Source: Acutalibacteraceae bacterium
GTDB lineage: Bacteria; Bacillota; Clostridia; Oscillospirales; Acutalibacteraceae
DNA length: 64,000 nucleotides
Direction: 5' to 3'
NCBI GenBank assembly: GCA_045590515.1
Contig: JAZNRD010000033.1
Coordinates: forward strand, 51,456-115,455
Under the pieces are notes generated by a model, which was not told the DNA's origin, searched no databases, and worked only from the letters and a program-made list of their open reading frames with translations. The stretch's first letter is position 1. Each line of letters begins with the position of its first letter. Shown here one piece after another: positions 5,791-61,602 of the stretch. Both the position numbers and the translations under genes were made by a program.

Positions 5791-6290
5791 CGGATAATGT
5801 TATTTTAATTGGTATGCCCGGAAGCGGCAAAAGCACCGTCGGTGTTTTGCTTGCAAAAATCCTTGGTTACAGCTTTGTTGACTCGGATATTATTATTCAG
5901 CAGACAGAGGGGCGAAAACTTTTCGAAATAATTAACGAAAAGGGAACTGAATACTTTGCGGAGCTCGAAAACCGTGTAAACGCCGGACTTTCGCTCCACA
6001 AAACCGTTATTGCAACGGGCGGCAGCGTCGTATACGGGCGCGAGGCTATGGAGCATTTAAAAAGTATTGGCACCGTAGTTTATATTGACGTTCCGCTTTC
6101 AGAGCTTTTAAACAGAATAACAAACCTTAATACACGCGGAATTGTTTTCAAAGACGGCGAAAACTTTTCGGACTTGTACCGTGAGCGCATACCTCTTTAT
6201 GAAAAATATGCCGATATTACGGTCACCTGTGGGCACGAGTCACAGAATGAAAACGCTCAAAAAATTGCTGACTTGCTTGAAAGCAAATAA
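5778..6290 (+). CDS. aroK: shikimate kinase
   Basis: 170 aa with Walker A GMPGSGKST followed by VGVLLAKILGYSFVDSD. Size and layout are typical of AroK. Confidence 0.9.
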   Translation: MAILADNVILIGMPGSGKSTVGVLLAKILGYSFVDSDIIIQQTEGRKLFEIINEKGTEYFAELENRVNAGLSLHKTVIATGGSVVYGREAMEHLKSIGTVVYIDVPLSELLNRITNLNTRGIVFKDGENFSDLYRERIPLYEKYADITVTCGHESQNENAQKIADLLESK

Positions 6291-6318
6291 AAAAGGCTTA
6301 CCAAACGGTAAGCCTTTT
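6289..6318. terminator. bidirectional terminator
   Basis: AAAAAGGCTTACC-AAAC-GGTAAGCCTTTT hairpin between convergent genes. Confidence 0.8.
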
Positions 6319-6322
6319 AATT

Positions 6323-7282
6323 TTATTCTGCCCTTAAATTATCGTAAAGCGCAGAGTCGGTCCAATCCTTTACAATCATATTTGTGCCAAGATTTTCGTG
6401 AATCTTGCGCTGTGCTTCGGCGTTATCGTCAAGTCGGCTGATGCAGAGAGCGCCAAGCTCAACACCTGCAAAAATCTCGCTTCTGCCGTCGCCTACTACC
6501 AGAATATTTTCAGCCTTGAGACCAAGCTGCTTTATAAGGTTTTCCATGACGACATTTTTGGGAATTTTCTCTGTCCAGGTAGAGCCATAGATGTCTTCCA
6601 TCATTTCTCTTTCGCCAAAACGGTAGCCGAGGGTTTCAACCTCCTCGTACATACCCATTCCCTTTTCAACAACAGCGCCTGTAACGAAATAGTTCTTAAC
6701 GCCGTTGTCTTTTAAGAATTTCATCCATTCGAAAGAGCCCTTTACTCTAAAGCGCTCGGGGTCTTGCTTTGCAATCTCTAAATTCTTGTCGCGGCAGTAG
6801 CCGTTAAGTACCTTTTCGTAGCAACGGAAAAGTCGCGGTGAATGCTCTGAGAGAAACGCCTCTATCTCGGGCTCGTCCGCGAGGTCTTCAAAAATTTCCT
6901 CGCCCTTCCAGATTCTGCGAATTTTTTCGCTGTTTACGGTCTTGTCGCAATCAAACTCAACCGTTCCCTCTTCAATCGCACGGCGAATGGACCATTCCAT
7001 CTGTGTGAGCGCGGAAAGTCCTGCTGACTCGATGCAGAAACGGTCGGTTTCGGGCAGAGGCTTCTGACCTGCAAGCTCGATAAGGCGCTTTACATTTTCG
7101 TCGCTGTCATAATCCTCGGGAAGACCGTTTACAATAACATCGTAAAGGACAATGCTCATAACCGGTGGCCATTCACGGATGAGCGAATGTGTACCGTCAA
7201 TATCGTGAAACGCGTGGGTAATTACTCGCTTTTCAAATTCCTTTTTAACAATGCTTTTATTGTTACTCTCGGCAATAATCAT
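6323..7282 (-). CDS. HAD-superfamily hydrolase with a large cap insertion, specificity unknown
   Basis: 319 aa. Motif I HDIDGTHS near the N-terminus and VVGDGRSE (motif IV-like) near the C-terminus. Confidence 0.6.
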   Translation of the reverse strand: MIIAESNNKSIVKKEFEKRVITHAFHDIDGTHSLIREWPPVMSIVLYDVIVNGLPEDYDSDENVKRLIELAGQKPLPETDRFCIESAGLSALTQMEWSIRRAIEEGTVEFDCDKTVNSEKIRRIWKGEEIFEDLADEPEIEAFLSEHSPRLFRCYEKVLNGYCRDKNLEIAKQDPERFRVKGSFEWMKFLKDNGVKNYFVTGAVVEKGMGMYEEVETLGYRFGEREMMEDIYGSTWTEKIPKNVVMENLIKQLGLKAENILVVGDGRSEIFAGVELGALCISRLDDNAEAQRKIHENLGTNMIVKDWTDSALYDNLRAE

Positions 7283-7462
7283 AAAAACCCCTCTTTTCTT
7301 CTTTCCACAACATTCTACAATATTGTCATAAAAAAAGCAATACCGCTTTTCGCAGTAAAATATAGACTTTTTCCTTTTTTATAAATTTTTACCGCTCATT
7401 TATGATTTGTTTACAAATTGGTGTTATAATATGCGTACACAAACAATCCAAAGGGTGATTTT

Positions 7463-7885
7463 ATGTATTACGGCGGACCGTATAGACCGTCCTTTCGCGA
7501 AAGACTTATGCGCTTTTTTGCCGGGCGCAACGGCTTTGACAGACTTTGCTCCGCGCTCTCGGTTTTATATTTTGTTTTGGCTATTATAAATTTGTTTGCT
7601 CGCTCGTGGGTTATAATTCTATTTGAATATGCAGTGCTGGGCGTTATTCTGTTTCGCACGCTCTCGCGCAACACTTATGCCAGACAGCGCGAAAATCTAA
7701 AGTATTACGAGCTTGAAAACAAAGTGCGCGGCTTTTTTGTTAGCAAAACCACACGTCTTCGCGACCGCGAGCACGTTTATAGGCGCTGCCCGTCTTGCAA
7801 AAGCACCCTCCGTCTTCCAAGGCGCAAAGGAAGACACACGGTAAAATGTCCGCGCTGCAGCCATCAGTTTAAAACGCGGGTATAG
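7463..7885 (+). CDS. small membrane protein with a C-terminal zinc ribbon
   Basis: 140 aa. Two hydrophobic helices, then CPSCKSTLRLP...VKCPRCSHQF (CxxC...CxxC). Confidence 0.7.
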   Translation: MYYGGPYRPSFRERLMRFFAGRNGFDRLCSALSVLYFVLAIINLFARSWVIILFEYAVLGVILFRTLSRNTYARQRENLKYYELENKVRGFFVSKTTRLRDREHVYRRCPSCKSTLRLPRRKGRHTVKCPRCSHQFKTRV

Positions 7886-7951: not shown

Positions 7952-7958
7952 ACTTTTT

Positions 7959-7987
7959 CGGGTCGTCGTGGGCGCCGACCCCTACGG
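7959..7987 (-). repeat. REP-like element 1: GTAG head plus GC-rich palindrome
   Basis: The minus strand reads GTAGGGGTCGGCGCCCACGACGACCCG. GTAG is followed by a GGGTCG/CGACCC stem. Confidence 0.55.
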
Positions 7988-8022: not shown

Positions 8023-8051
8023 CGGGAGGGCACAGAGACCCTCCCCTACGG
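8023..8051 (-). repeat. REP-like element 2: GTAG head plus GC-rich palindrome
   Basis: The minus strand reads GTAGGGGAGGGTCTCTGTGCCCTCCCG, with a GGGAGGG/CCCTCCC stem. It matches 59764-59790 at 26/27 and 59930-59957 at 26/28. Confidence 0.6.
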
Positions 8052-8296: not shown

Positions 8297-8358
8297 ATAT
8301 ATGTATTAGTTTTTGTATTTTTACTAAACATACAAAATATTTTTAAGGAGTGTTTTTT

Positions 8359-11300
8359 ATGAAGAAACTTCTCAGCATTCTCCTCAGCGTGCTGCTGCTT
8401 CTCAGTACTATGGCTGTACTGACAATCCTACCTGCAGTAGCCACCACCACCGAGAACGAACCTGTTAACCTCATTGTTAACGGTGACGGTTCTATGAAAA
8501 CTTGGGGAGACAACAAGGATGAGAACGGTAATGCGTACACTACAATTACCGATACGACAAATCCTAACTTTGGCCTGATTGTTCAAAGCAATTTTTACGG
8601 TTGGCGTTCTATGAATTATGGGACAAAAACGACAACCGACCCGGAAACAAGTGAAACTACGACCACCTACACACCATATGCAAACTGTAGTATCCGTTGG
8701 ACCAAAACTCCCAATGTTCCCGACTTGTATTATGCGGGATATACAACCGATACCAACGGCATATCTCTGCAGGTAAACAATGGTAATGCCTCAATGCAGG
8801 ACATTAAGATTGAAAAGGATAAAACTTACACTGTTTCTTTTGATGCCACGTTTTATCCCAAGGCGTCTTCTGCCGCTGTGACAGGCTTATGGTTCGACGC
8901 GCATATTGATGACGGCGCAGGCGAATTTATGTGTGATAAATGGCCTGGTACAGGCAGCACTGAAAATAAATATGTTGCTGTTACCGGCAAATCTTATGAC
9001 CTATGCGACCAAAACGATGATGTTTACAACGAAATGGTAGTTGATACCACAACAAAAGCCTATGATACTTACTCATATACTAAGTCCGACGGTACCACAG
9101 TAACCAATTGGGACTTTGGAGGCTTCAAAAACTACACATTTACATTTGCCGCAAATGACGTTATCAATGATTTTTCAATGACTGACGATGATAGTGACGG
9201 TTATTATGATGCTCGCTTTGTTATAAAGAACAACTGCTCTACCATTTTATTGTTCGACAACGTTACGATTTATGAGTCGCATAATATTATTTCAAGCGAC
9301 GGCGGATATGTAAACACAGAATTTGCATACGCAAATACTACTTCAACCATCGTCGCTACCCCTTATTATGGAAACAACTTCAAGGGTTGGTATAATGGCG
9401 ACACTCTTGTATCTACAAGTGCTACATATACAGGCGTTATAACAAGCGACCTTACTGCTAAGTTTGATGTTTATAACCAAATCGTTGACGGAAGCTTTGA
9501 ATCTGGAACTGATGCAGGAATAACTCAATTTACTGAAGCTAAACGTTATAGTACTATTGCAATTTCCCCCACACTTGTATCGCCTACTGAAACCCCAGCT
9601 GCTACTCATGGAAATTACTGTCTTGAGATTAATCCCGGCGACACAACCAATGCAGCATCTAAACAGCTTTTTAATCTACCGGTAACCATAAGCAAGGATA
9701 CAGAGTACTATTTTGAATACTATGTATATTGCGTTCCCTCTACCTATACAGATAGTGCGGGAACAGAGGTAACTAACAATTATTTCAATTCTTATTTTTG
9801 TCCAATTGTAGGCACATCACTATCATCGTGGAACACATCATCTCTTAATCTATTCAAAAGTTATACCTATACTTTTTTCAATGAAAACGGCAAAAAGAAT
9901 AATACAAATGTATATTCTTGGAATGGTACGGTGCAAGCCGCAAAAACAATGCTGACAGTGGACACTCGTATGGTATCGATTAATCAGCAATGGGTATGCG
10001 TCCGTTTATTGTTTAATTCGGGAAATAGTGAAGATATATTCGGAACTGATACAACTGCCACTTTAAACCTTCAAATAGGTGTTGAAAATGCTATAAACGC
10101 CGACATACGCCTTGACAATATCTTCTTTGGTGAAAGCACGCAAAACGCTAATATGACTGCAACTGCAGGCGGAACCGTTTCCACCGCTACAACAGTTCCG
10201 ATGCATTACAAATCCACCGCATATGGCTCACTTCCTTCAGAAACAGATTATACTGTAAGCTATTACCCTGCAAAAGCAAATGAATACACTGCTACAGCCG
10301 ACACCGGTTACCGCTTTGTTGGTTGGTATGACGGAGATACATTGGTTTCGTCAAACGCTACAGAAATTTTCTATAGCGGCAAAAACTACACCGCTAAGTT
10401 CGAGCCTGTTCCCACCTACACCATCACCGCCACCGCAGAAAAGAACGCAGACGGTATTTACGGCGGATATGTTATTAATAAGTCACAGGTTATAAACGAG
10501 GCTGAAAATGTTACAGTTAACGCAGTAACCTACGCAGGCAACACCTTTGAGGGTTGGTACAACGGTGAAACAAAGGTTTCTTCTAATGAATCCTATACCT
10601 TTACCGTAGCATCGGATGTTGACCTTGTTGCTAAGTGGAATGTAGAGAACCTCTGGCCCGACTCCGGTTACGAAAACACCGAAATCGGTCTTGAGCAGAT
10701 GATACACCACAACATAAACGGTCAGTGGAAAGCGAAAGGCAACTTTGCATATTGGTCTCATGCAAAAGCGGTCACAGACAGAGTAAATTCCGGTAGCGCT
10801 TCTCTGTTCCTCCAGCATCGCAACAACGAGGTTGGAACAGAAGTTTCAGTTACTCCGAACACTGACTATGAATTTTCGCTTAACTGGAGAATATATCCTA
10901 CCGATTCTCGTTTTTCACAAATTAGTGTTTATAGTGAGAATGGCAGTAAAATAGCCTATTTTGATATCAACACGCCTTACTCCACCGATTTTCAAAACAC
11001 AAAGGTAGTATTTAACAGTGGTAATAACGATAAAATATTTATTGCATTTACCTATACCGCAGGCTCTCCTGGAATTTGGCTTGATGATATTGTTCTTGTT
11101 CCGTTCACAGGCGAAGATACCGGTTACTACCGTGTAACATATGACTTTGGCGACAGCAATATGGTAAACGCTATAGAATATGTTAAGGGTGGAGAGTATA
11201 CACTTAGAGCCCATACATTCTTCGAACGCAGTACTGTAATGAAGGATTTTGTAAACTACACTGTAGGTAGCGAAAATAAGGTTCCCGGTGATGTAATTAC

Positions 11301-12999
11301 CGTTGAAGGTGACATTACCGTAACAATTAACTACAAAGACCACGTTAGCAGCGACCTTACAGATAACACCACATTTGACCCGGCAAACTATGAGTTCACC
11401 TTTGCAGCCCTTCCCGACCCGCAAAAGTTGCTCTTACATCACGGTGATTACTATGGTAAGATTGGCGAATGGCTGATTGCAAATAAGGAAGCATACAAGA
11501 TTGCCGGCGTTATGGCTCTTGGCGACCTTACTGAGCATGGCTCTTGGACACAATTCTCTGCTTCTTATGACGCATTTAAGGACGTAATTAAGGCAATGCC
11601 CTTTGGCGTTTCGCTTGGTAACCATGACTACATGGGTGGCGGCGGAACAGGAAACTACACCGCGACACAAGGACCTGAATACAACACTCTTTACAACCAC
11701 TTCTTTAAAGATGATATTGTAGAGTCCTTGCTTGCAAATAACGGCGGCGCATATCCGTACGTTAACAAGGCAATAGAGGGCTACGAAGTAATGTCTGCCG
11801 ATGCCGATATAGATGATGTTACCAATACATATTATGTATATGACAATGGCTATATCGTAATTTCCCTTGAAATCTACCCCCGTACCGAAATTCTTAACTG
11901 GGCAAACGCTATTGCTAAGGCTAACCCCGAAAAGAAAGTTATTGTTACAACACACTCGCATCTTGGCGACAACGGCGAGCTTTTAAACGATGACGACCTC
12001 TATTATATTGCTGCAAACGAAACAACTAATAGTGGCACAACCGTTCGTGAGACGCTTCTTGAAACCAACTCCAACATTGTAATGATGGTTTGCGGTCATG
12101 ACTCTACTCAGCAAATCGTTTATGACGAGCATACACGCGAAGACGGAAGCATCTATTACGAAGTTCTTATTGATAACCAGGACGACGATGAAAACTATCG
12201 CGGTGTTGGTATGGTAGCACTCCTCGGTTTCCGTGCAGACGGCACTATTGACACAACCTACTACTCGACCATTTGGAACAAGTATTTCAAGAGCGACGTT
12301 AACGAAGTTACATTTGATTTTGGCATTACATCGCATTCCGATGTTGCAGAAAACGTAACCGAAGGCGAAGCAATTGATACATCTGTTGTTGACAATGATA
12401 GATACTTCATCCCCTACGGCGCACTTTACTACACCGATGAAAATGGTGATATTAAGTATGTTGACAAGGATGCAGACGGCAAATTTACCGCACCTGTTAC
12501 AGGCACATTTAATTTCACAGGATTTAAAAAGCCTGCATTTGGTAAGCTTTTAACCTTCGGCGCTTCCGCTAACCCGACCGACGGCACTGTTCAGTACGGT
12601 TCCTACATTGAAAGTGTTACAGAAGGTACACAGTACGGTACAATGTTTATCACAGGCGACTGGGATGCATTTGTTAAGTATTATCAGGATAATAAATCCT
12701 GGACTGTTGACGAGATTGTTGCAAAGGTAAGCGCTATGTATGACAACAAAATCGCTAACTACGACGGCTATGTTCCGATTAGCGCGGGCGAAGATATCGC
12801 AATTTTTGTATACAAGGTTGACCAGAAAAACTGGATGTATAAGAACGACGGCGGTGTACTCGAATTTGCACTCCGCGTTGTAGGTCTTGAGGCTAATCAG
12901 AATTGTACTGCAGTTGCTTACGCAAAGACCGAAAGCGGCTGTGAGTTCTCAGAAAATGTTATAAGCACAAGCTTTAATAAGCTCGTTGGCGCTAACTAA
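8359..12999 (+). CDS. large secreted multidomain protein: three CBM-like beta-sandwich modules each followed by a Listeria-Bacteroides repeat, then a calcineurin-like metallophosphoesterase domain
   Basis: AAGGAG RBS at 8345-8350 and ATG at 8359. Signal peptide MKKLLSILLSVLLLLSTMAVLTILPAVA. Three repeats of the G(N/Y)xFxGWY(N/D)G(D/E)T(L/K)VS type at ~9361, ~10303 and ~10535. Phosphoesterase motifs GDLTEHG, GNHD, TTHSHL and CGHD fall at ~11500-12110. Confidence 0.85.
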   Translation: MKKLLSILLSVLLLLSTMAVLTILPAVATTTENEPVNLIVNGDGSMKTWGDNKDENGNAYTTITDTTNPNFGLIVQSNFYGWRSMNYGTKTTTDPETSETTTTYTPYANCSIRWTKTPNVPDLYYAGYTTDTNGISLQVNNGNASMQDIKIEKDKTYTVSFDATFYPKASSAAVTGLWFDAHIDDGAGEFMCDKWPGTGSTENKYVAVTGKSYDLCDQNDDVYNEMVVDTTTKAYDTYSYTKSDGTTVTNWDFGGFKNYTFTFAANDVINDFSMTDDDSDGYYDARFVIKNNCSTILLFDNVTIYESHNIISSDGGYVNTEFAYANTTSTIVATPYYGNNFKGWYNGDTLVSTSATYTGVITSDLTAKFDVYNQIVDGSFESGTDAGITQFTEAKRYSTIAISPTLVSPTETPAATHGNYCLEINPGDTTNAASKQLFNLPVTISKDTEYYFEYYVYCVPSTYTDSAGTEVTNNYFNSYFCPIVGTSLSSWNTSSLNLFKSYTYTFFNENGKKNNTNVYSWNGTVQAAKTMLTVDTRMVSINQQWVCVRLLFNSGNSEDIFGTDTTATLNLQIGVENAINADIRLDNIFFGESTQNANMTATAGGTVSTATTVPMHYKSTAYGSLPSETDYTVSYYPAKANEYTATADTGYRFVGWYDGDTLVSSNATEIFYSGKNYTAKFEPVPTYTITATAEKNADGIYGGYVINKSQVINEAENVTVNAVTYAGNTFEGWYNGETKVSSNESYTFTVASDVDLVAKWNVENLWPDSGYENTEIGLEQMIHHNINGQWKAKGNFAYWSHAKAVTDRVNSGSASLFLQHRNNEVGTEVSVTPNTDYEFSLNWRIYPTDSRFSQISVYSENGSKIAYFDINTPYSTDFQNTKVVFNSGNNDKIFIAFTYTAGSPGIWLDDIVLVPFTGEDTGYYRVTYDFGDSNMVNAIEYVKGGEYTLRAHTFFERSTVMKDFVNYTVGSENKVPGDVITVEGDITVTINYKDHVSSDLTDNTTFDPANYEFTFAALPDPQKLLLHHGDYYGKIGEWLIANKEAYKIAGVMALGDLTEHGSWTQFSASYDAFKDVIKAMPFGVSLGNHDYMGGGGTGNYTATQGPEYNTLYNHFFKDDIVESLLANNGGAYPYVNKAIEGYEVMSADADIDDVTNTYYVYDNGYIVISLEIYPRTEILNWANAIAKANPEKKVIVTTHSHLGDNGELLNDDDLYYIAANETTNSGTTVRETLLETNSNIVMMVCGHDSTQQIVYDEHTREDGSIYYEVLIDNQDDDENYRGVGMVALLGFRADGTIDTTYYSTIWNKYFKSDVNEVTFDFGITSHSDVAENVTEGEAIDTSVVDNDRYFIPYGALYYTDENGDIKYVDKDADGKFTAPVTGTFNFTGFKKPAFGKLLTFGASANPTDGTVQYGSYIESVTEGTQYGTMFITGDWDAFVKYYQDNKSWTVDEIVAKVSAMYDNKIANYDGYVPISAGEDIAIFVYKVDQKNWMYKNDGGVLEFALRVVGLEANQNCTAVAYAKTESGCEFSENVISTSFNKLVGAN

Positions 13000-51020: not shown

Positions 51021-52181
51021 GTGATGATTTTGACTGCTCTATTTGAACAAATAATACTTTTACTTCGTAGTGTTATAAACAAAAACGCTGTTAACCTTAA
51101 CGATATAGCAATTTCTAGTGAAGATATATCAAAAATGCATCTCCTCGCTCAAAAACATAATATTAGTAATATTATTTCTTGGGCTATTCTAAACAACCCT
51201 AATGAAATTAGTATTGATGTTTCCTCACTAGAAAAAGAAATTTTTGTTTCAATAATACAATCCGAGAAGCGCGATTATGAAATTGAAAAAATTAAAAATA
51301 TATTTAAAAAAAACAATATTCAACACATTTTTTTAAAGGGTTCCGTTCTAAAGAACCTATATCCCGAATCTTGGATGAGAACAAGCTGCGATATTGATAT
51401 TCTTGTAAAAGATATAGAGCGCGCAGAAAAGGTTTTAATAGACAATTTCTTTGTTAAAGGGAAAGAGGGTTCTCACGACATAATCTTCTTTTCTGAAAGC
51501 AAAATACCAATTGAATTGCATTTTGAACTCATTGAAACAAATGATTCGGTTAATAAAGTGTTACAGAAAGTTTGGGAGTTTTCTTCTCCGGCGTCTTTGG
51601 ACTCCTATGAATATTCAATGTCGCCTGAAATGTTTTATTTTTATCACATAGCTCATATGGCTAAACACTTTTCATTCGGCGGTTGCGGCATACGTTCTTT
51701 TTTAGATTTGTGGCTCTTAATAAACCAAAACAACTATAACAAAAAGGTTCTAAAACAACTATTAAAAGAAGCAAAATTATTGCTTTTTGCAGAAAATGCA
51801 GAAAAGCTTGCCAAGTGTTGGTTTGAGGGAGGTCCTTTAACTCCAACAACTCAAGAAATGCAAAATTTTGTTTTTGCCGGTGGAGTTTTTGGCACAAGAG
51901 AAAGCCAGGTAATTATAAACAGGGCTCAAGCAGACAACAAAATGACATTTTTCATCCAACGAATTTTTATGCCGTATCGTCTTTTGAAATTAAAGTACCC
52001 GAGTCTTAATTCTCATCCATATTTATTACCTATCTTTTGGATAATTAGATGGTTTGAATTACTTAAAAGTTTTAAAAAAATAAAAGGTGCTCTTTTTGAA
52101 ATTCACACTAACAAATCCATAGCATCAGAAAATATAATAAAAACTCACAAACTTTTTTCAGACTTAGGACTAAACAAATAA
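51021..52181 (+). CDS. uncharacterised nucleotidyltransferase (NTP_transf_5-type)
   Basis: 386 aa. FLKGSVLKNLYPESWMRTSCDIDILV plus the downstream HDIIFF...IELHF pattern typical of this family. Confidence 0.7.
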   Translation: MMILTALFEQIILLLRSVINKNAVNLNDIAISSEDISKMHLLAQKHNISNIISWAILNNPNEISIDVSSLEKEIFVSIIQSEKRDYEIEKIKNIFKKNNIQHIFLKGSVLKNLYPESWMRTSCDIDILVKDIERAEKVLIDNFFVKGKEGSHDIIFFSESKIPIELHFELIETNDSVNKVLQKVWEFSSPASLDSYEYSMSPEMFYFYHIAHMAKHFSFGGCGIRSFLDLWLLINQNNYNKKVLKQLLKEAKLLLFAENAEKLAKCWFEGGPLTPTTQEMQNFVFAGGVFGTRESQVIINRAQADNKMTFFIQRIFMPYRLLKLKYPSLNSHPYLLPIFWIIRWFELLKSFKKIKGALFEIHTNKSIASENIIKTHKLFSDLGLNK

Positions 52182-53065: not shown

Positions 53066-53142
53066 CCGCCTGTGGCGCAGCTGGATAACGCAGCAGATTC
53101 CGATTCTGAAGAACGGGGGTTCGAATCCCTTCAGGCGGGCCA
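53066..53142 (+). tRNA. tRNA-Arg (anticodon CCG), CCA encoded
   Basis: Hand-folded. Acceptor stem CCGCCTG/CAGGCGG, D-arm GCGC-AGCTGGATA-ACGC, anticodon stem-loop with TT-CCG-AT (CCG at 53100-53102). 5-nt variable loop, T-arm GGGGG-TTCGAAT-CCCTT, discriminator G plus CCA. Total 77 nt. Confidence 0.85.
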
Positions 53143-58345: not shown

Positions 58346-59356
58346 ATGGCTTTATTTGAATCTTATGAGAGAAGAATTGACCAAATCAATGCTGTTCTTT
58401 CAAGCTATGGTATTGCTTCCCTGGAGGAAGCCGAAAAGATTACCAAGGACGCCGGACTTAATGTTTACGACCAGGTAAAGAAAATTCAGCCCATCTGCTT
58501 TGAAAATGCTTGCTGGGCATATATTGTTGGCTGTGCTATTGCTATTAAGAAGGGCTGCACCCGCGCTGCTGACGCCGCTGCCGCTATCGGCGAGGGTCTT
58601 CAGGCATTCTGCATCCCCGGCTCTGTTGCTGACCAGCGTAAGGTTGGTCTTGGCCACGGTAACCTCGGCAAGATGCTTCTTGAAGAGGAGACCGAGTGCT
58701 TCGCATTCTTAGCAGGTCACGAGTCCTTTGCTGCTGCTGAGGGCGCTATCGGTATTGCTGAGAAGGCAAACAAGGTAAGAAGCAAGCCGCTTCGCGTTAT
58801 CCTTAACGGTCTTGGTAAGGATGCTGCACAGATTATCTCTCGTATCAACGGCTTTACATATGTTGAGACCGAGATGGATTATTACACCGGCGAAGTTAAA
58901 GAGGTATTCCGCAAGGCATACTCCACTGGTCTTCGCTCCAAGGTTAACTGCTACGGCGCTAACGATGTTCGTGAGGGCGTTGCTATCATGCACAAGGAGG
59001 GTGTTGACGTTTCCATCACCGGTAACTCCACCAACCCGACCCGCTTCCAGCACCCCGTTGCAGGCACCTATAAGAAGGAATGCATTGAGCAGGGCAAGAA
59101 GTATTTTTCAGTTGCTTCGGGCGGCGGTACAGGCCGTACACTCCACCCCGACAACATGGCTGCAGGTCCCGCTTCCTACGGTATGACCGATACCCTCGGC
59201 CGTATGCACTCTGACGCTCAGTTTGCAGGCAGTTCTTCTGTTCCTGCCCACGTTGAGATGATGGGTCTTATCGGTATGGGTAACAACCCGATGGTTGGCG
59301 CTACCGTTGCTTGCGCAGTTTCGGTTGAAGAGGCTGCTAAGGAAGGCAAGTTCTAA
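58346..59356 (+). CDS. GGGtGRT family protein (conserved, function unknown)
   Basis: 336 aa, containing the eponymous motif SGGGTGRTLHPDNMAAGPASYGMTD. AGGAGG RBS. Confidence 0.8.
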   Translation: MALFESYERRIDQINAVLSSYGIASLEEAEKITKDAGLNVYDQVKKIQPICFENACWAYIVGCAIAIKKGCTRAADAAAAIGEGLQAFCIPGSVADQRKVGLGHGNLGKMLLEEETECFAFLAGHESFAAAEGAIGIAEKANKVRSKPLRVILNGLGKDAAQIISRINGFTYVETEMDYYTGEVKEVFRKAYSTGLRSKVNCYGANDVREGVAIMHKEGVDVSITGNSTNPTRFQHPVAGTYKKECIEQGKKYFSVASGGGTGRTLHPDNMAAGPASYGMTDTLGRMHSDAQFAGSSSVPAHVEMMGLIGMGNNPMVGATVACAVSVEEAAKEGKF

Positions 59357-59366
59357 ATCATAAAAT

Positions 59367-59397
59367 AAAAAGACCTCGATTTTCGAGGTCTTTTTTT
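59367..59397 (+). terminator. rho-independent terminator of the GGGtGRT gene
   Basis: AAAAAGACCTCGA-TTT-TCGAGGTCTTTTTTT. Confidence 0.85.
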
Positions 59398-59409: not shown

Positions 59410-59547
59410 TCAGTTCGCAGGCAGTCCTTCTGTTCCTGCCCACGCCCCGATGATGAGTCTTATTGGTATGGGTAACAACCCGATGGCTTATGCTACCACC
59501 CTTGCGCAGTTTCTGCCCACGAGGCTGCTAAAGAAGGCAAGTTCTAA
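59410..59547 (+). pseudogene. diverged, frameshifted duplicate of the last ~139 nt of the GGGtGRT gene
   Basis: Aligns collinearly with 59218-59356 (roughly 85 percent identity by eye, with a 1-nt deletion). It ends in the same ...AAGGCAAGTTCTAA and is followed by its own terminator. Confidence 0.8.
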
Positions 59548-59556
59548 GAAAATTTA

Positions 59557-59587
59557 AAAGGACTCGGTTTCCCGAGTCCTTTTTTTA
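59557..59587. terminator. second terminator (bidirectional; overlaps the Y1-transposase stop codon)
   Basis: AAAAGGACTCGG-TTTC-CCGAGTCCTTTTTTT. Confidence 0.8.
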
Positions 59588-60070
59588 TTGACTATAATAG
59601 CAATCGTCTTGCCACTTTTGAGGATTTGTATCAATGTAATTCCAGATTTTCAAGTAATCTTCCTCACCGCGTATTATGTGGTCGTGAAATGAGCGTTGCC
59701 ATAATGTTTTACCGTATTTATTGGTTGTAAATGATTTAAGCCGTCCGATTACATCCTGCACTTGTAGGGGAGGGTCTCCGTGCCCTCCCGTTCCATTATC
59801 AATTCTAATTATTAAATGAATATGATTTGGCATAATAACGAATTTATCGACCATTATTCCGATATAACTTTCGCTTATATATTTTATTGATTCTTCAACA
59901 ATTTTTCCTATTGGGGAAAGAATTATTGACGGGAGGGCGCAGAGGCCCTCCCCTACGATGTTTCCAAAAAGATTTTGCTTTTTATGCGTGCATATTGTTA
60001 TAAAATATGCGCCGTCGCTACTGTAATTATAATCTTTTAACCGTGTCGGTTTGCGCTTTTTTAAATACAT
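59585..60070 (-). CDS. Y1 HUH transposase-like protein (IS200-like / REP-associated tyrosine transposase, RAYT-type)
   Basis: MYLKKRKPTRLKDYNYSSDGAYFITICT, HUH motif MPNHIHLII, and the catalytic-Tyr region SFHDHIIRGEEDYLKIWNYIDTNPQKW. The ATG at 60068-60070 overlaps the upstream stop as TAATG. No terminal inverted repeats or IS ends were seen. Confidence 0.78.
   Translation of the reverse strand: MYLKKRKPTRLKDYNYSSDGAYFITICTHKKQNLFGNIVGEGLCALPSIILSPIGKIVEESIKYISESYIGIMVDKFVIMPNHIHLIIRIDNGTGGHGDPPLQVQDVIGRLKSFTTNKYGKTLWQRSFHDHIIRGEEDYLKIWNYIDTNPQKWQDDCYYSQ
59764..59790 (+). repeat. GTAG-headed palindrome copy inside the Y1 transposase CDS (head on the plus strand)
   Basis: GTAGGGGAGGGTCTCCGTGCCCTCCCG. 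It encodes GGHGDPPLQ on the minus strand. GC-rich patch in an AT-rich gene. Confidence 0.7.
59930..59957 (-). repeat. GTAG-headed palindrome copy inside the Y1 transposase CDS (head on the minus strand)
   Basis: The plus strand reads CGGGAGGGCGCAGAGGCCCTCCCCTACG. It encodes VGEGLCALP. The same peptide, VGEGLCALP, is produced by the intergenic copy at 8023-8051. Confidence 0.7.
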
Positions 60071-61602
60071 TATCTCTTTACAAAATATTCTTCGTACCAC
60101 ACAAGGAAGGTGTAGATTACATAGACCTTGCGCCAGGCGTCTGAGTTTCCGCCTAGGTAATCAGAGAGGATTGCATTTATCTCGTCTAAATTAAAGAATT
60201 TTTCCGCCGTTTCACTGCTGAATTTTGCTTTGACATCGGCGTTATAGCGCTCGTCCGCCATCCACATACGGATTGGCACCACGAAGCCTAATTTCTTGCG
60301 GAAAGCAATTTCCTCGGGCAGTAGTTTTGCCGCCGCAGTACGAAGTGCTACCTTGTTCTGCTCTTCGTTCACCTTAAACTGAGGCGGAACGCGCGAGGCA
60401 ATATCGAATATGCGCATATCGGTGAGCGGCATTCGTACCTCGAGTCCTGCCGCGCGGCTCATTTTATCTACATTTAGATAAATGTCGCCCTCTAACCAGA
60501 CCTCTATATCCACATCGGTCATTAAGGATAGTGGGTCAAGCCCTTTATTGTGCTCATAAATATCGCGTACGAGGTCGATAGGCTCAAAATTATCGTAATA
60601 TCTTTTGAGTATTTTGCGCTTTTCGTCCTCTTTCATTATATTGGTATTTCCAACATAGAAATCCTTTAGGTTCTCGCCGTAGCGTTCGGCGTTGCGGTAC
60701 ATATTATAGCCGCCGAAAAATTCATCCGCGCCCTCGCCCGAGTAGCAGATTTTGGTATTTTTCGCCGTTTCGATACAACCGAGTGCAAAGGCAACCGCCG
60801 ATGCGTCACCAAGCGGCTGCTCCATATTATACATAACATAAGGAATAGCCGAGAAATAATCTTCGGGTGTTATAACGCAGCGATTAAATTTGCGGCCCAA
60901 TATATCCGCGGTCTGCTTTGCAAGGCCCGATTCGTCCAGTCGGCTATCGTCATAGCCACAGCTGTTGCAAGCAGTTGCGTCCGAAACCGCAAGGACATAG
61001 GAGGAGTCAACGCCGCCCGAGAGGAAGCTTTCTACATACTCGTCCTCGTCCTTGACCTCTTTCATAATTCCCGTAAGCGCACTGTGGATTTCGTCTGCAA
61101 AGGAGTCGAGCGTGCGGGTATTATCGGGGGAGAAATGCGGGGTGAAATAACGGTGAATCTCTTTTTCGCCGTTTTTATAAATCATATATCTGCCGGGGAG
61201 CAGCTTATATACATCCGTGAAAAAGGTTTCCTCTCCCGTTGTATAGGTCATTGTAAGATAAATCTGCAGCATTTTTTCGTTTAGATTTTTTTGGAAACCG
61301 CCGTCCTGCATTATATCGCGGATACTGTCCGAATAGAGTAGTCTGCCATCGGCAGTTTCATAGTAATAAAGTGGCTTTGTGCCGAACGGGTCGCGAAGTA
61401 AGAAAAGACTTCCGTCATCATTCTCGATAACAAAAGAAAACATTCCGTGTATGTGAAGTCCCATTTCGCCGCCCCATTTTTTGAAGGCCGAAAGGATTAT
61501 TGCCTCTTCCCTTTCCCTGCGCGGCAAGGCGGATGAGATATTTAATTCTTCGCAAAGGGCTTTATGATTACGGATATGACCGCTATAGAATTTAAGCTGC
61601 AT
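60070..61602 (-). CDS. asparagine synthetase B-like protein lacking the N-terminal catalytic Cys region (glutaminase-dead AsnB homolog)
   Basis: 510 aa. Synthetase-domain PP-loop SFLSGGVDSS is present. The N-terminus begins at MQLKFYSGHIRNHKALCEEL, which aligns with the NGEIYN region ~70 residues into canonical AsnB. There is no MCG start, and the RBS and promoter upstream are clean. Confidence 0.8.
   Translation of the reverse strand: MQLKFYSGHIRNHKALCEELNISSALPRREREEAIILSAFKKWGGEMGLHIHGMFSFVIENDDGSLFLLRDPFGTKPLYYYETADGRLLYSDSIRDIMQDGGFQKNLNEKMLQIYLTMTYTTGEETFFTDVYKLLPGRYMIYKNGEKEIHRYFTPHFSPDNTRTLDSFADEIHSALTGIMKEVKDEDEYVESFLSGGVDSSYVLAVSDATACNSCGYDDSRLDESGLAKQTADILGRKFNRCVITPEDYFSAIPYVMYNMEQPLGDASAVAFALGCIETAKNTKICYSGEGADEFFGGYNMYRNAERYGENLKDFYVGNTNIMKEDEKRKILKRYYDNFEPIDLVRDIYEHNKGLDPLSLMTDVDIEVWLEGDIYLNVDKMSRAAGLEVRMPLTDMRIFDIASRVPPQFKVNEEQNKVALRTAAAKLLPEEIAFRKKLGFVVPIRMWMADERYNADVKAKFSSETAEKFFNLDEINAILSDYLGGNSDAWRKVYVIYTFLVWYEEYFVKR

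Follow-up and report, generated by a model that had tools for sequence, protein, structure and literature searches.

In-frame inverted REP elements inside a RAYT-like transposase gene of an Acutalibacteraceae bacterium and its mostly Clostridial relatives

A predicted transposase gene in the genome of an Acutalibacteraceae bacterium contains, within its coding sequence and in frame, two GTAG-type repetitive extragenic palindromic (REP) elements that are inverted relative to each other and bracket the codons for the catalytic HUH motif. The gene, which codes for a protein resembling the REP-associated tyrosine transposases (RAYTs), lies in a 64-kb stretch of DNA that was analyzed in full (positions 51,456 to 115,455 of contig JAZNRD010000033.1, GenBank assembly GCA_045590515.1; hereafter, the window). 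Such an inverted in-frame pair probably goes back to the common ancestor of a clade that consists mostly of Clostridia and is related to TnpA_REP subclass 2.4. The general phenomenon of in-gene REPs has already been published; the two-site inverted layout seen in Clostridia is apparently undescribed. What appears to be new is the fixed inverted pair bracketing the HUH motif in this clade, its maintenance at the DNA level, and its turnover together with the REP family of each lineage.

REP elements within the transposase gene

The transposase gene (positions 59585 to 60070 of the window, minus strand, including the stop codon; ATG at 60070) codes for a 161-aa protein with a start position that is common to its homologs, of which 4161 were found. 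The protein passes narrowly the cut-off of the Pfam Y1_Tnp profile (23.9 bits against 23) and scores under that of the NCBIfam profile REP_Tyr_transpos (63.8 bits against 80). Its top match among PDB sequences is the Escherichia coli TnpA_REP bound to REP (4ER8; E value 3e-7), which is also the best Foldseek match (E value 6e-8; TM-score 0.61) of its AlphaFold2 model (pLDDT 79). Judging from these sequence and fold matches, the gene appears to encode a RAYT-like Y1 transposase, as the initial annotation had proposed. The HUH motif, H83-I84-H85 in MPNHIHL (59816 to 59824, minus strand), lies between the two REPs. The presumed catalytic Tyr residue, Y145 in the YIDTNP motif (codon at 59636 to 59638, minus strand), is in the segment that aligns with the YIYINP region of 4ER8. 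The residues H83-I-H85 and Y145-I-D-T-N-P, including Y145, I146, and N149, are invariant in an alignment of 31 homologs and are also present across the 80 loci described below; given the invariant HUH motif and Y145, the transposase looks active.

Searching both strands of the window with the 27-nt sequence CGGGAGGGCACAGAGACCCTCCCCTAC and allowing up to 3 mismatches yields exactly three matches, at 8023-8049 (plus strand, 0 mismatches), 59764-59790 (minus strand, 1 mismatch), and 59930-59956 (plus strand, 2 mismatches), against 0.00 chance matches in 100 dinucleotide-preserving shuffles. Two of these are in the transposase gene, inverted relative to each other, with 139 nt between them. Site 1 (59930 to 59956, minus strand, gene-sense GTAGGGGAGGGCCTCTGCGCCCTCCCG) is read as GTA GGG GAG GGC CTC TGC GCC CTC CCG and encodes residues V39 to P47, VGEGLCALP. 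Site 2 (59764 to 59790), which reads GTAG-first on the plus strand, antisense to the gene, has the gene-sense sequence CGGGAGGGCACGGAGACCCTCCCCTAC and encodes (T)GGHGDPPL(Q), residues 94-103. The extragenic REP of the same family, the only such copy in the window, lies between the open reading frames (ORFs) 7463-7885 and 8350-12999 and is read on the minus strand as GTAGGGGAGGGTCTCTGTGCCCTCCCG (8023 to 8049); in a tblastn search, it translates to VGEGLCALP. The initial annotation had described two GC-rich in-gene copies of the element at 8023, matching it at 26/27 and 26/28 positions, inverted about 140 nt apart in an AT-rich gene, coding for VGEGLCALP and GGHGDPPLQ on either side of the HUH motif, and sharing the former peptide with the intergenic copy. 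All of this stands, and the G+C content is 74-78% in the elements and 31% in the remainder of the gene.

In each element, a 5' GTAG precedes a stem of 7-8 bp (GGGAGGG/CCCTCCC) that closes a loop of 6-8 nt, which is the anatomy of a GTAG-type REP. Elements of this class have their tag at the base of a GC-rich stem-loop of 20-40 nt and typically occur in many copies dispersed outside the genes of a genome. The window contains only four GTAG-tagged GC hairpins, all with the tag at the foot of the GC stem-loop: the two in the transposase gene and two that are found side by side, the one at 8023-8049 and a REP of a second family at 7958-7985 (minus strand, GTAGGGGTCGGCGCCCACGACGACCCGA). The predicted DNA hairpin energies are -9.2 kcal/mol for site 1 and -7.4 kcal/mol for site 2. 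The GTAG tags of the in-gene pair face outward, which is the geometry of extragenic REP doublets; within this window, no REP flanks the transposase gene. The copy at 8023-8049 was also considered as the remnant of a dead transposase gene, which is ruled out, as the similarity ends at the edges of the element and there is no other homology in the window. At the Rfam gathering thresholds, the sole match to a known RNA family in the window is a tRNA gene (53066-53139).

In the AlphaFold2 model, site 1 forms the turn of a beta-hairpin located between beta1 and alphaA (strands 36-39 and 48-51), and site 2 falls in a low-confidence loop (residues 91-103) that follows the HUH strand, between beta3 and alphaC. 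Distant relatives without in-gene REPs (from Leptolinea, Fulvitalea, and Spirosoma), which came from plasmid searches that gave few relatives, show an NGEM-type turn in the place of site 1 and, in that of site 2, a variable loop of unrelated sequence. All 117 relatives of the REP-less Leptolinea protein keep the NGEM turn, with no REP-type peptide at site 1; their REP-type peptides (RGDRPVAPT, VGAHGRAPL, VGATGRSPLQ), often several per protein, occur only after the HUH motif. The DNA of one of these relatives, from Methylocaldum (locus L205), has an inverted REP pair entirely within the post-HUH loop and an extra copy in an N-terminal extension; in locus L147, which has no in-gene REPs, REPs still adjoin the gene. 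Since both sites are in loops and the REP-less relatives have a different turn or loop there, the encoded peptides appear to be passengers in two predicted surface loops.

Conservation, DNA-level constraint, and turnover of the pair

The comparison set comprises 80 loci, one genome per species, whose transposases show 44-75% amino acid identity; most come from metagenome-assembled genomes of Clostridia. A GTAG hairpin is found at the site 1 position in nearly all of these loci, and an ungapped inverted repeat of at least 20 nt brackets the HUH motif in 66 of 79 homologs. Among the 13 loci that were re-checked for want of such a repeat, 9 keep a GTAG hairpin at both sites, the alignment having been broken by 1-nt differences in loop length; L057 carries two different hairpins, and L019, L043, and L079 have a decayed site 1. 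Between close homologs (65-77% identity), VGEGLCALP and TGGHGDPPLQ are the most conserved stretches, whereas the peptides at the two sites differ completely by lineage (VGDGAFDVP/GTSKAPSPT, VGTGVLDGP/GPSGTPVPT, VGQGLAPA/AGASPCPT, VGRDDLGAP/GAPRSSRPT, VGAIHKSP/RESPLQ). Over positions 7-26, site 1 shares 87% identity with the reverse-complemented site 2 of the same gene, as compared with 50% between genes and 36% between hairpin families. A peptide-level test for perfect 21-nt reverse-complement compatibility, which undercounts by demanding perfection, is passed by 36% of 147 cluster representatives against 8% in the null.

The kind of constraint acting on the two sites can be read from the differences between them. 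The two copies were compared in 63 gene pairs chosen with the GTAG tag as the anchor; the tag, being the anchor of the selection, agrees at 252 of 252 positions, and when the copies of one gene are compared, mismatches affect loops at a rate of 0.27 and stems at a rate of 0.06. The stems account for 39 differences, of which 23 belong to double changes that preserve the base pair within one site, 7 are single changes that still allow pairing, and 9 disrupt it. Because a compensated change at one site lowers its complementarity to the other, it is the local tag and hairpin that is maintained rather than a long duplex. In the transposase gene of the window, the predicted fold of a 221-nt RNA pairs both copies (-81.4 kcal/mol, z = -8.4); although thermodynamically predicted here, such a long-range duplex is not supported as the conserved feature by the comparison, given the single-site compensated changes and the heterotypic pair of L057.

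Synonymous codon usage points in the same direction. Among 15 species with VGEGLCALP-type elements, two genomes use the same codon for a given residue with a probability of 0.83 within the elements, as against 0.48 in the rest of the gene (Mann-Whitney p = 1.4e-6). The codons GTA, GGG, GAG, CTC, and GCC in the elements are each identical in 15 of 15 species, whereas invariant Gly, Arg, Ser, and Thr residues outside the elements use 3-5 codons. Selection on the protein cannot account for such codon freezing, and the in-gene sites are constrained as DNA. This bears on the explanation that nothing but chance, or the conservation of protein residues, underlies the similarity; the initial annotation had itself named both of these as grounds on which its reading would fall. 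That VGEGLCALP and GGHGDPPLQ are the most conserved peptides of close homologs would suit such an explanation. However, shuffling produces no chance matches, the peptides change from lineage to lineage while the sites remain matched reverse complements, and what is retained is the GTAG tag together with stem pairing and synonymous codon choice. Protein-level conservation alone is thereby ruled out, and the explanation as a whole can practically be discounted.

The type of the in-gene element is also found around the gene. The gene's own element recurs outside it within ~10 kb in 20 of 63 loci, compared to 3.3% of the tests with foreign elements, and these extragenic copies often abut the transposase gene. 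In Geosporobacter subterraneus (L029), the flanking REPs alternate between type A on the plus strand and type B on the minus strand, mirroring sites 1 and 2, and L031 has an extragenic doublet with the same outward-GTAG geometry as the in-gene pair. The in-gene segments are thus the cognate REPs of the transposase.

Several loci carry traces of rearrangement at the sites. Throughout the 80 loci, the GTAG of site 1 is always read as GTA|G, one alternative frame of which would give a TAG stop codon, and three frames are used for the CTAC of site 2, giving PLQ, PT, and PY. Tandem duplications of the REP are found in L037, where both sites are affected, as well as in P0022, P0113, and P0066, and L057 has a heterotypic REP pair. 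In L002, a 304-nt partial transposase copy (6279-6582; 96% identity, with a 2-nt deletion) begins 5 nt ahead of the ATG and stops precisely at the CTACA found at the site 2 REP's outer end. The gene in L018 (10001-10477) has a mosaic structure: over the first 114 nt, it shares 87% identity with L002, a figure that falls to 52% just past site 1, downstream of which the gene resembles that of L021 (78%), with which it shares its REP type, the REP type of L002 being different. This structure is consistent with recombination at the REP. The frameshifted copies in L016 and L049 have an indel inside the site 1 REP. A gene of the GGGtGRT family adjoins the transposase gene in the window and in L001, L016, L061, L022, and L026. 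Between L001 and L022, the neighboring genes are 93-94% identical, but the transposases are only ~55% identical and their REP types differ; synteny stops at the transposase.

Known systems and candidate explanations

In-frame REP insertions in tnpA_REP genes are given as the hallmark of subclass 2.4 (RAYT group 4) in the part of Quentin et al. 2018 (BMC Genomics 19:475, PMC6006769) that deals with this subclass, where they are called “a remarkable and unique feature.” According to the same part of that paper (PMC6006769), the insertions generally follow the HUH motif, in the beta3/alphaC loop, away from the DNA-binding and catalytic sites, and are probably harmless to the protein; the subclass has the motifs NH[IFV]H, WQ, and YIxNNP and is found in cyanobacteria, Bacteroidetes, and scattered other phyla. 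The view of the initial annotation that RAYT genes are flanked, not interrupted, by REPs was therefore too strong, while the in-frame REP insertion that it offered as a possible origin is supported. Those passages of Nunvar 2010, Di Nocera 2013, and Corneloup 2021 that were searched do not describe REPs inside RAYT genes.

The transposase of the window is 29-37% identical to subclass 2.4-like proteins and has the NHIH and WQ motifs of the published table; its YIDTNP has T where the consensus has N. Like subclass 2.4 members, it is a Y1/HUH enzyme with GTAG REPs in its coding sequence that leave the frame intact, and in both cases REPs may also flank the gene. Site 2 is in the published location, the post-HUH loop, but site 1 precedes the HUH motif and constitutes a second fixed site, replacing the NGEM turn that the 117 other relatives keep. 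Furthermore, the sites described here form one inverted pair around the catalytic motif, near-universal in the Clostridial clade, unlike the pair in the subclass 2.4 member from Methylocaldum (L205), which is confined to one loop.

The canonical REPtron, the E. coli TnpA_REP with its REPs and bacterial interspersed mosaic elements (Nunvar 2010; Ton-Hoang 2012; Messing 2012, PDB 4ER8), includes the closest solved structure. Here as there, a GTAG tag with a GC hairpin is the recognition unit, and REPs occur in alternating orientation. However, the E. coli gene is flanked by REPs rather than interrupted by them, and its protein is without both loop expansions; the REPs described here are shorter, form perfect hairpins without a bulge, and do not flank the gene in the window. 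The REPIN-RAYT systems (REPIN, REP doublet forming a hairpin; Bertels and Rainey 2011; Bertels et al. 2017) also consist of inverted REPs with outward tags, foldable to one long hairpin, and have one REP family per transposase lineage, with co-evolution of the enzyme and the repeats. REPINs are inverted REPs that replicate as a unit with a short spacer, and the in-gene pair does not behave as one: its spacer is 125-175 nt of essential coding sequence instead of a short noncoding segment, the unit is unrepeated bar one pseudogene fragment (in L002), and the comparison supports local hairpins, not a long stem.

Members of the IS200/IS605 family (IS608, ISDra2) share the protein fold and have hairpins with a 5' guide tetranucleotide that mark the positions of single-strand cleavage. 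In these elements, both hairpins are on one strand, lie beyond the transposase gene, and delimit the mobile unit, whereas the hairpins described here occupy opposite strands within the gene, of which they enclose just one third. Another parallel is provided by the Rickettsia palindromic elements (RPEs), reportedly described by Ogata in 2000 as in-frame palindromic elements in genes. Intragenic GTAG/CGTC REPs, in turn, occur in many unrelated genes, as stated in a portion of Di Nocera 2013 (PMC3733652). In all these cases, short palindromic repeats are read through as extra peptides in loops of working proteins. The RPEs and intragenic REPs are, however, scattered over unrelated host genes at nonconserved sites, whereas here the host gene is that of the element's own transposase, and the sites are fixed in the clade and maintained as DNA.

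The account that we favor as reasonably probable is that the enzyme repeatedly acts on its own in-gene REPs and that selection on the protein filters the outcomes. By analogy with TnpA_REP (PMC3479197, PMC8266576), the transposase would bind single-stranded DNA at GTAG hairpins. The inversion of the pair gives each strand of the transposase gene exactly one GTAG site, and the enzyme, being made next to its gene, would act on the in-gene sites repeatedly. Through cleavage and strand transfer, the REPs at these sites could be renewed, exchanged for others, duplicated, or recombined, and only the in-frame, stop-free outcomes in two tolerant loops would pass selection on the protein, so that the hairpins would follow the REP family of the lineage rather than decay.

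Several considerations weigh against this account. The REP copy number appears to be low, with one extragenic copy of the family in 64 kb and none within 10 kb in 43 of 63 loci, and active renewal is therefore not demonstrated. The rearrangement traces in L002, L018, and L057 are single cases each, and many of the loci belong to metagenome-assembled genomes, in which GC-rich hairpins could carry assembly errors. Compensatory stem changes could also arise without selection, via templated correction of quasi-palindromes, although the frozen GTAG tag would not be explained thereby. That this protein binds and cleaves the in-gene sites, and that the enzyme acts on its own gene, is what we infer from work on the E. 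coli and other TnpA_REP proteins (PMC3479197, PMC8266576). Finally, the constraint could equally reflect a function at the host or enzyme level, and the data do not separate drive from function.

Functional readings of this kind deserve attention, even though the pair would more often be expected to lack such a role. Conceivably, it is a selected part of the system, with the gene as a permanent substrate that serves as a self-limiting or autoregulatory site or as a master copy, and with the REPs as recombination joints that allow the cassette with the catalytic center to be exchanged along with the REP type. Self-limitation and a resident master copy, taken together, are rather less likely than not to account for the pair, and each is less probable when taken singly. 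In the former, a cis-regulatory element, the enzyme would bind or nick the hairpins in its own gene or mRNA, or the copies would pair around the HUH segment, keeping the nuclease low; we see this as possible, if doubtful. It would account for the tag and stems being frozen at synonymous positions, which leaves the sites recognizable to the enzyme, for the inverted layout with one GTAG hairpin per strand, and for the almost universal retention of the pair across the clade. The predicted pairing of the copies in the 221-nt RNA would also fit, as would the description of the E. coli TnpA_REP, in a passage of PMC3479197, as auto-inhibited and strongly down-regulated. However, the long duplex is not the conserved feature, given the 23 changes compensated within one site, the heterotypic pair of L057, and the three otherwise intact genes with a decayed site 1, and related subclass 2.4 genes have variable numbers of REPs in one loop only, which resembles insertion dynamics and not a fixed design. 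As a master copy, the pair would be a resident REPIN that seeds the dispersed REPs of each genome, the enzyme and its substrate being co-inherited and co-evolving. Only the in-gene copies are present in nearly every genome, the extragenic ones being sparse; the extragenic doublets of L029 and L031 share the outward-GTAG geometry (and those of L029 also the A/B types); and the REP type switches together with the transposase at positional orthologs. Nevertheless, the direction of copying is unreadable from these data, L147 has REPs beside its gene while lacking them inside, and the 190-nt unit is unrepeated except for one pseudogene fragment, so this version is unlikely.

At the other end is the reading that Quentin et al. 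2018 suggested for subclass 2.4, in which the in-gene REPs are old neutral in-frame insertions, with no ongoing process or function behind them. Both sites are loops with freely varying peptides, intragenic REPs are reported from many unrelated genes (in part of PMC3733652), and the discussion of the insert in PMC6006769 places it away from the DNA-binding and catalytic sites. But inserts of 75% G+C in genes of ~31% G+C, where synonymous sites are scrambled, should have decayed, and instead the tag and stems are synonymously identical in 15 species, the stem changes are mostly compensated pairs, and the element type tracks the extragenic copies; neutrality is accordingly quite improbable. Even less can be said for an invertible switch, in which flipping the ~190-nt segment would turn the gene off. 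In its favor, an essential segment has inverted repeats of 27 nt on both sides, and the simulated inversion places stop codons in 63 of 66 genes, which would be a clean off state (and which rules out the production of an alternative protein isoform by inversion). Yet no allele in the inverted state is seen among the 80 loci or the listed homologs, Y1 enzymes, which act on single-stranded DNA, are not known for inverting double-stranded segments, and heterotypic or diverged pairs would not support inversion, making a switch very improbable.

Whichever of these applies, the clade bears on the questions of how REP-associated transposases stay matched to their repeats and are kept harmless. It offers a compact natural test bed, with two 27-nt sites in the enzyme's own coding sequence of ~160 codons' worth of protein (~160 aa), in which the effects of the sites can be separated from those of the peptides through synonymous recoding. 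For this clade at least, the published view that in-gene REPs probably make little difference to the protein is incomplete. The GC-rich “conserved peptides” of these AT-rich genes are DNA signals, and annotation and profile building should not take them for functional protein motifs. If the pair is indeed a selected part of the system, the enzyme and its substrate would be locked into co-inheritance and co-evolution.

Genomic neighborhoods, paralogs, and similar hairpins

The start codon of the transposase gene overlaps the stop codon of an upstream asparagine-synthase-like ORF (60070-61602, minus strand) in the sequence TAATG (60068-60072), which suggests co-transcription and translational coupling rather than an autonomous element; this upstream neighbor is not conserved in related loci. 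On the other side, there is a tandem duplication of ~192 bp (59218-59395 and 59410-59583; 86-87% identity), whose unit consists of the last ~45 codons of the GGGtGRT-family gene (58346-59356) and its terminator. Two terminator hairpins (59367-59395 and 59556-59583) consequently separate this gene from the convergent transposase gene. The duplication may be the scar of an event that placed or replaced the transposase there.

The REP of the second family, GTAGGGGTCGGCGCCCACGACGACCCGA, is located 37 nt from the first and sits between two terminator-like hairpins. It is one compensated stem pair apart from the in-gene REP of L021/L030-type homologs. Given this second REP family, the genome probably encodes a second transposase paralog outside the window; none was found inside the 64 kb. 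A second paralog is seen by tblastx in L022 (~6979-7476), ~3 kb upstream of the first, and two paralogs with different REP types are present in one genome in the cases of L052/L071, L017/L031, and L012/L074.

Hairpins of the GTAGGGGAGGG...CCCTCCCG type are a common dispersed repeat in high-GC (50-74% G+C) environmental contigs (L085-L204), often as inverted doublets 50-150 nt apart. In these metagenome contigs, 147 of 150 matches to the hairpin type fall outside RAYT-like genes, a figure that says little on Clostridial genomes. The shared type is either one REP type common to very different organisms or the result of convergence.

The transposase of the window has no PADLOC hit as a defense-system protein. 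Some of its distant relatives are encoded in restriction-modification clusters (L205, L206, and L084). The gene order in Methylocaldum (L205, 1-6753) is hsdM, hsdS, the transposase, a gene with an SLFN/AlbA_2 domain, and hsdR, and in Monoglobus pectinilyticus (L084, 1064-5428), the transposase relative is located between two DNA methyltransferase genes.

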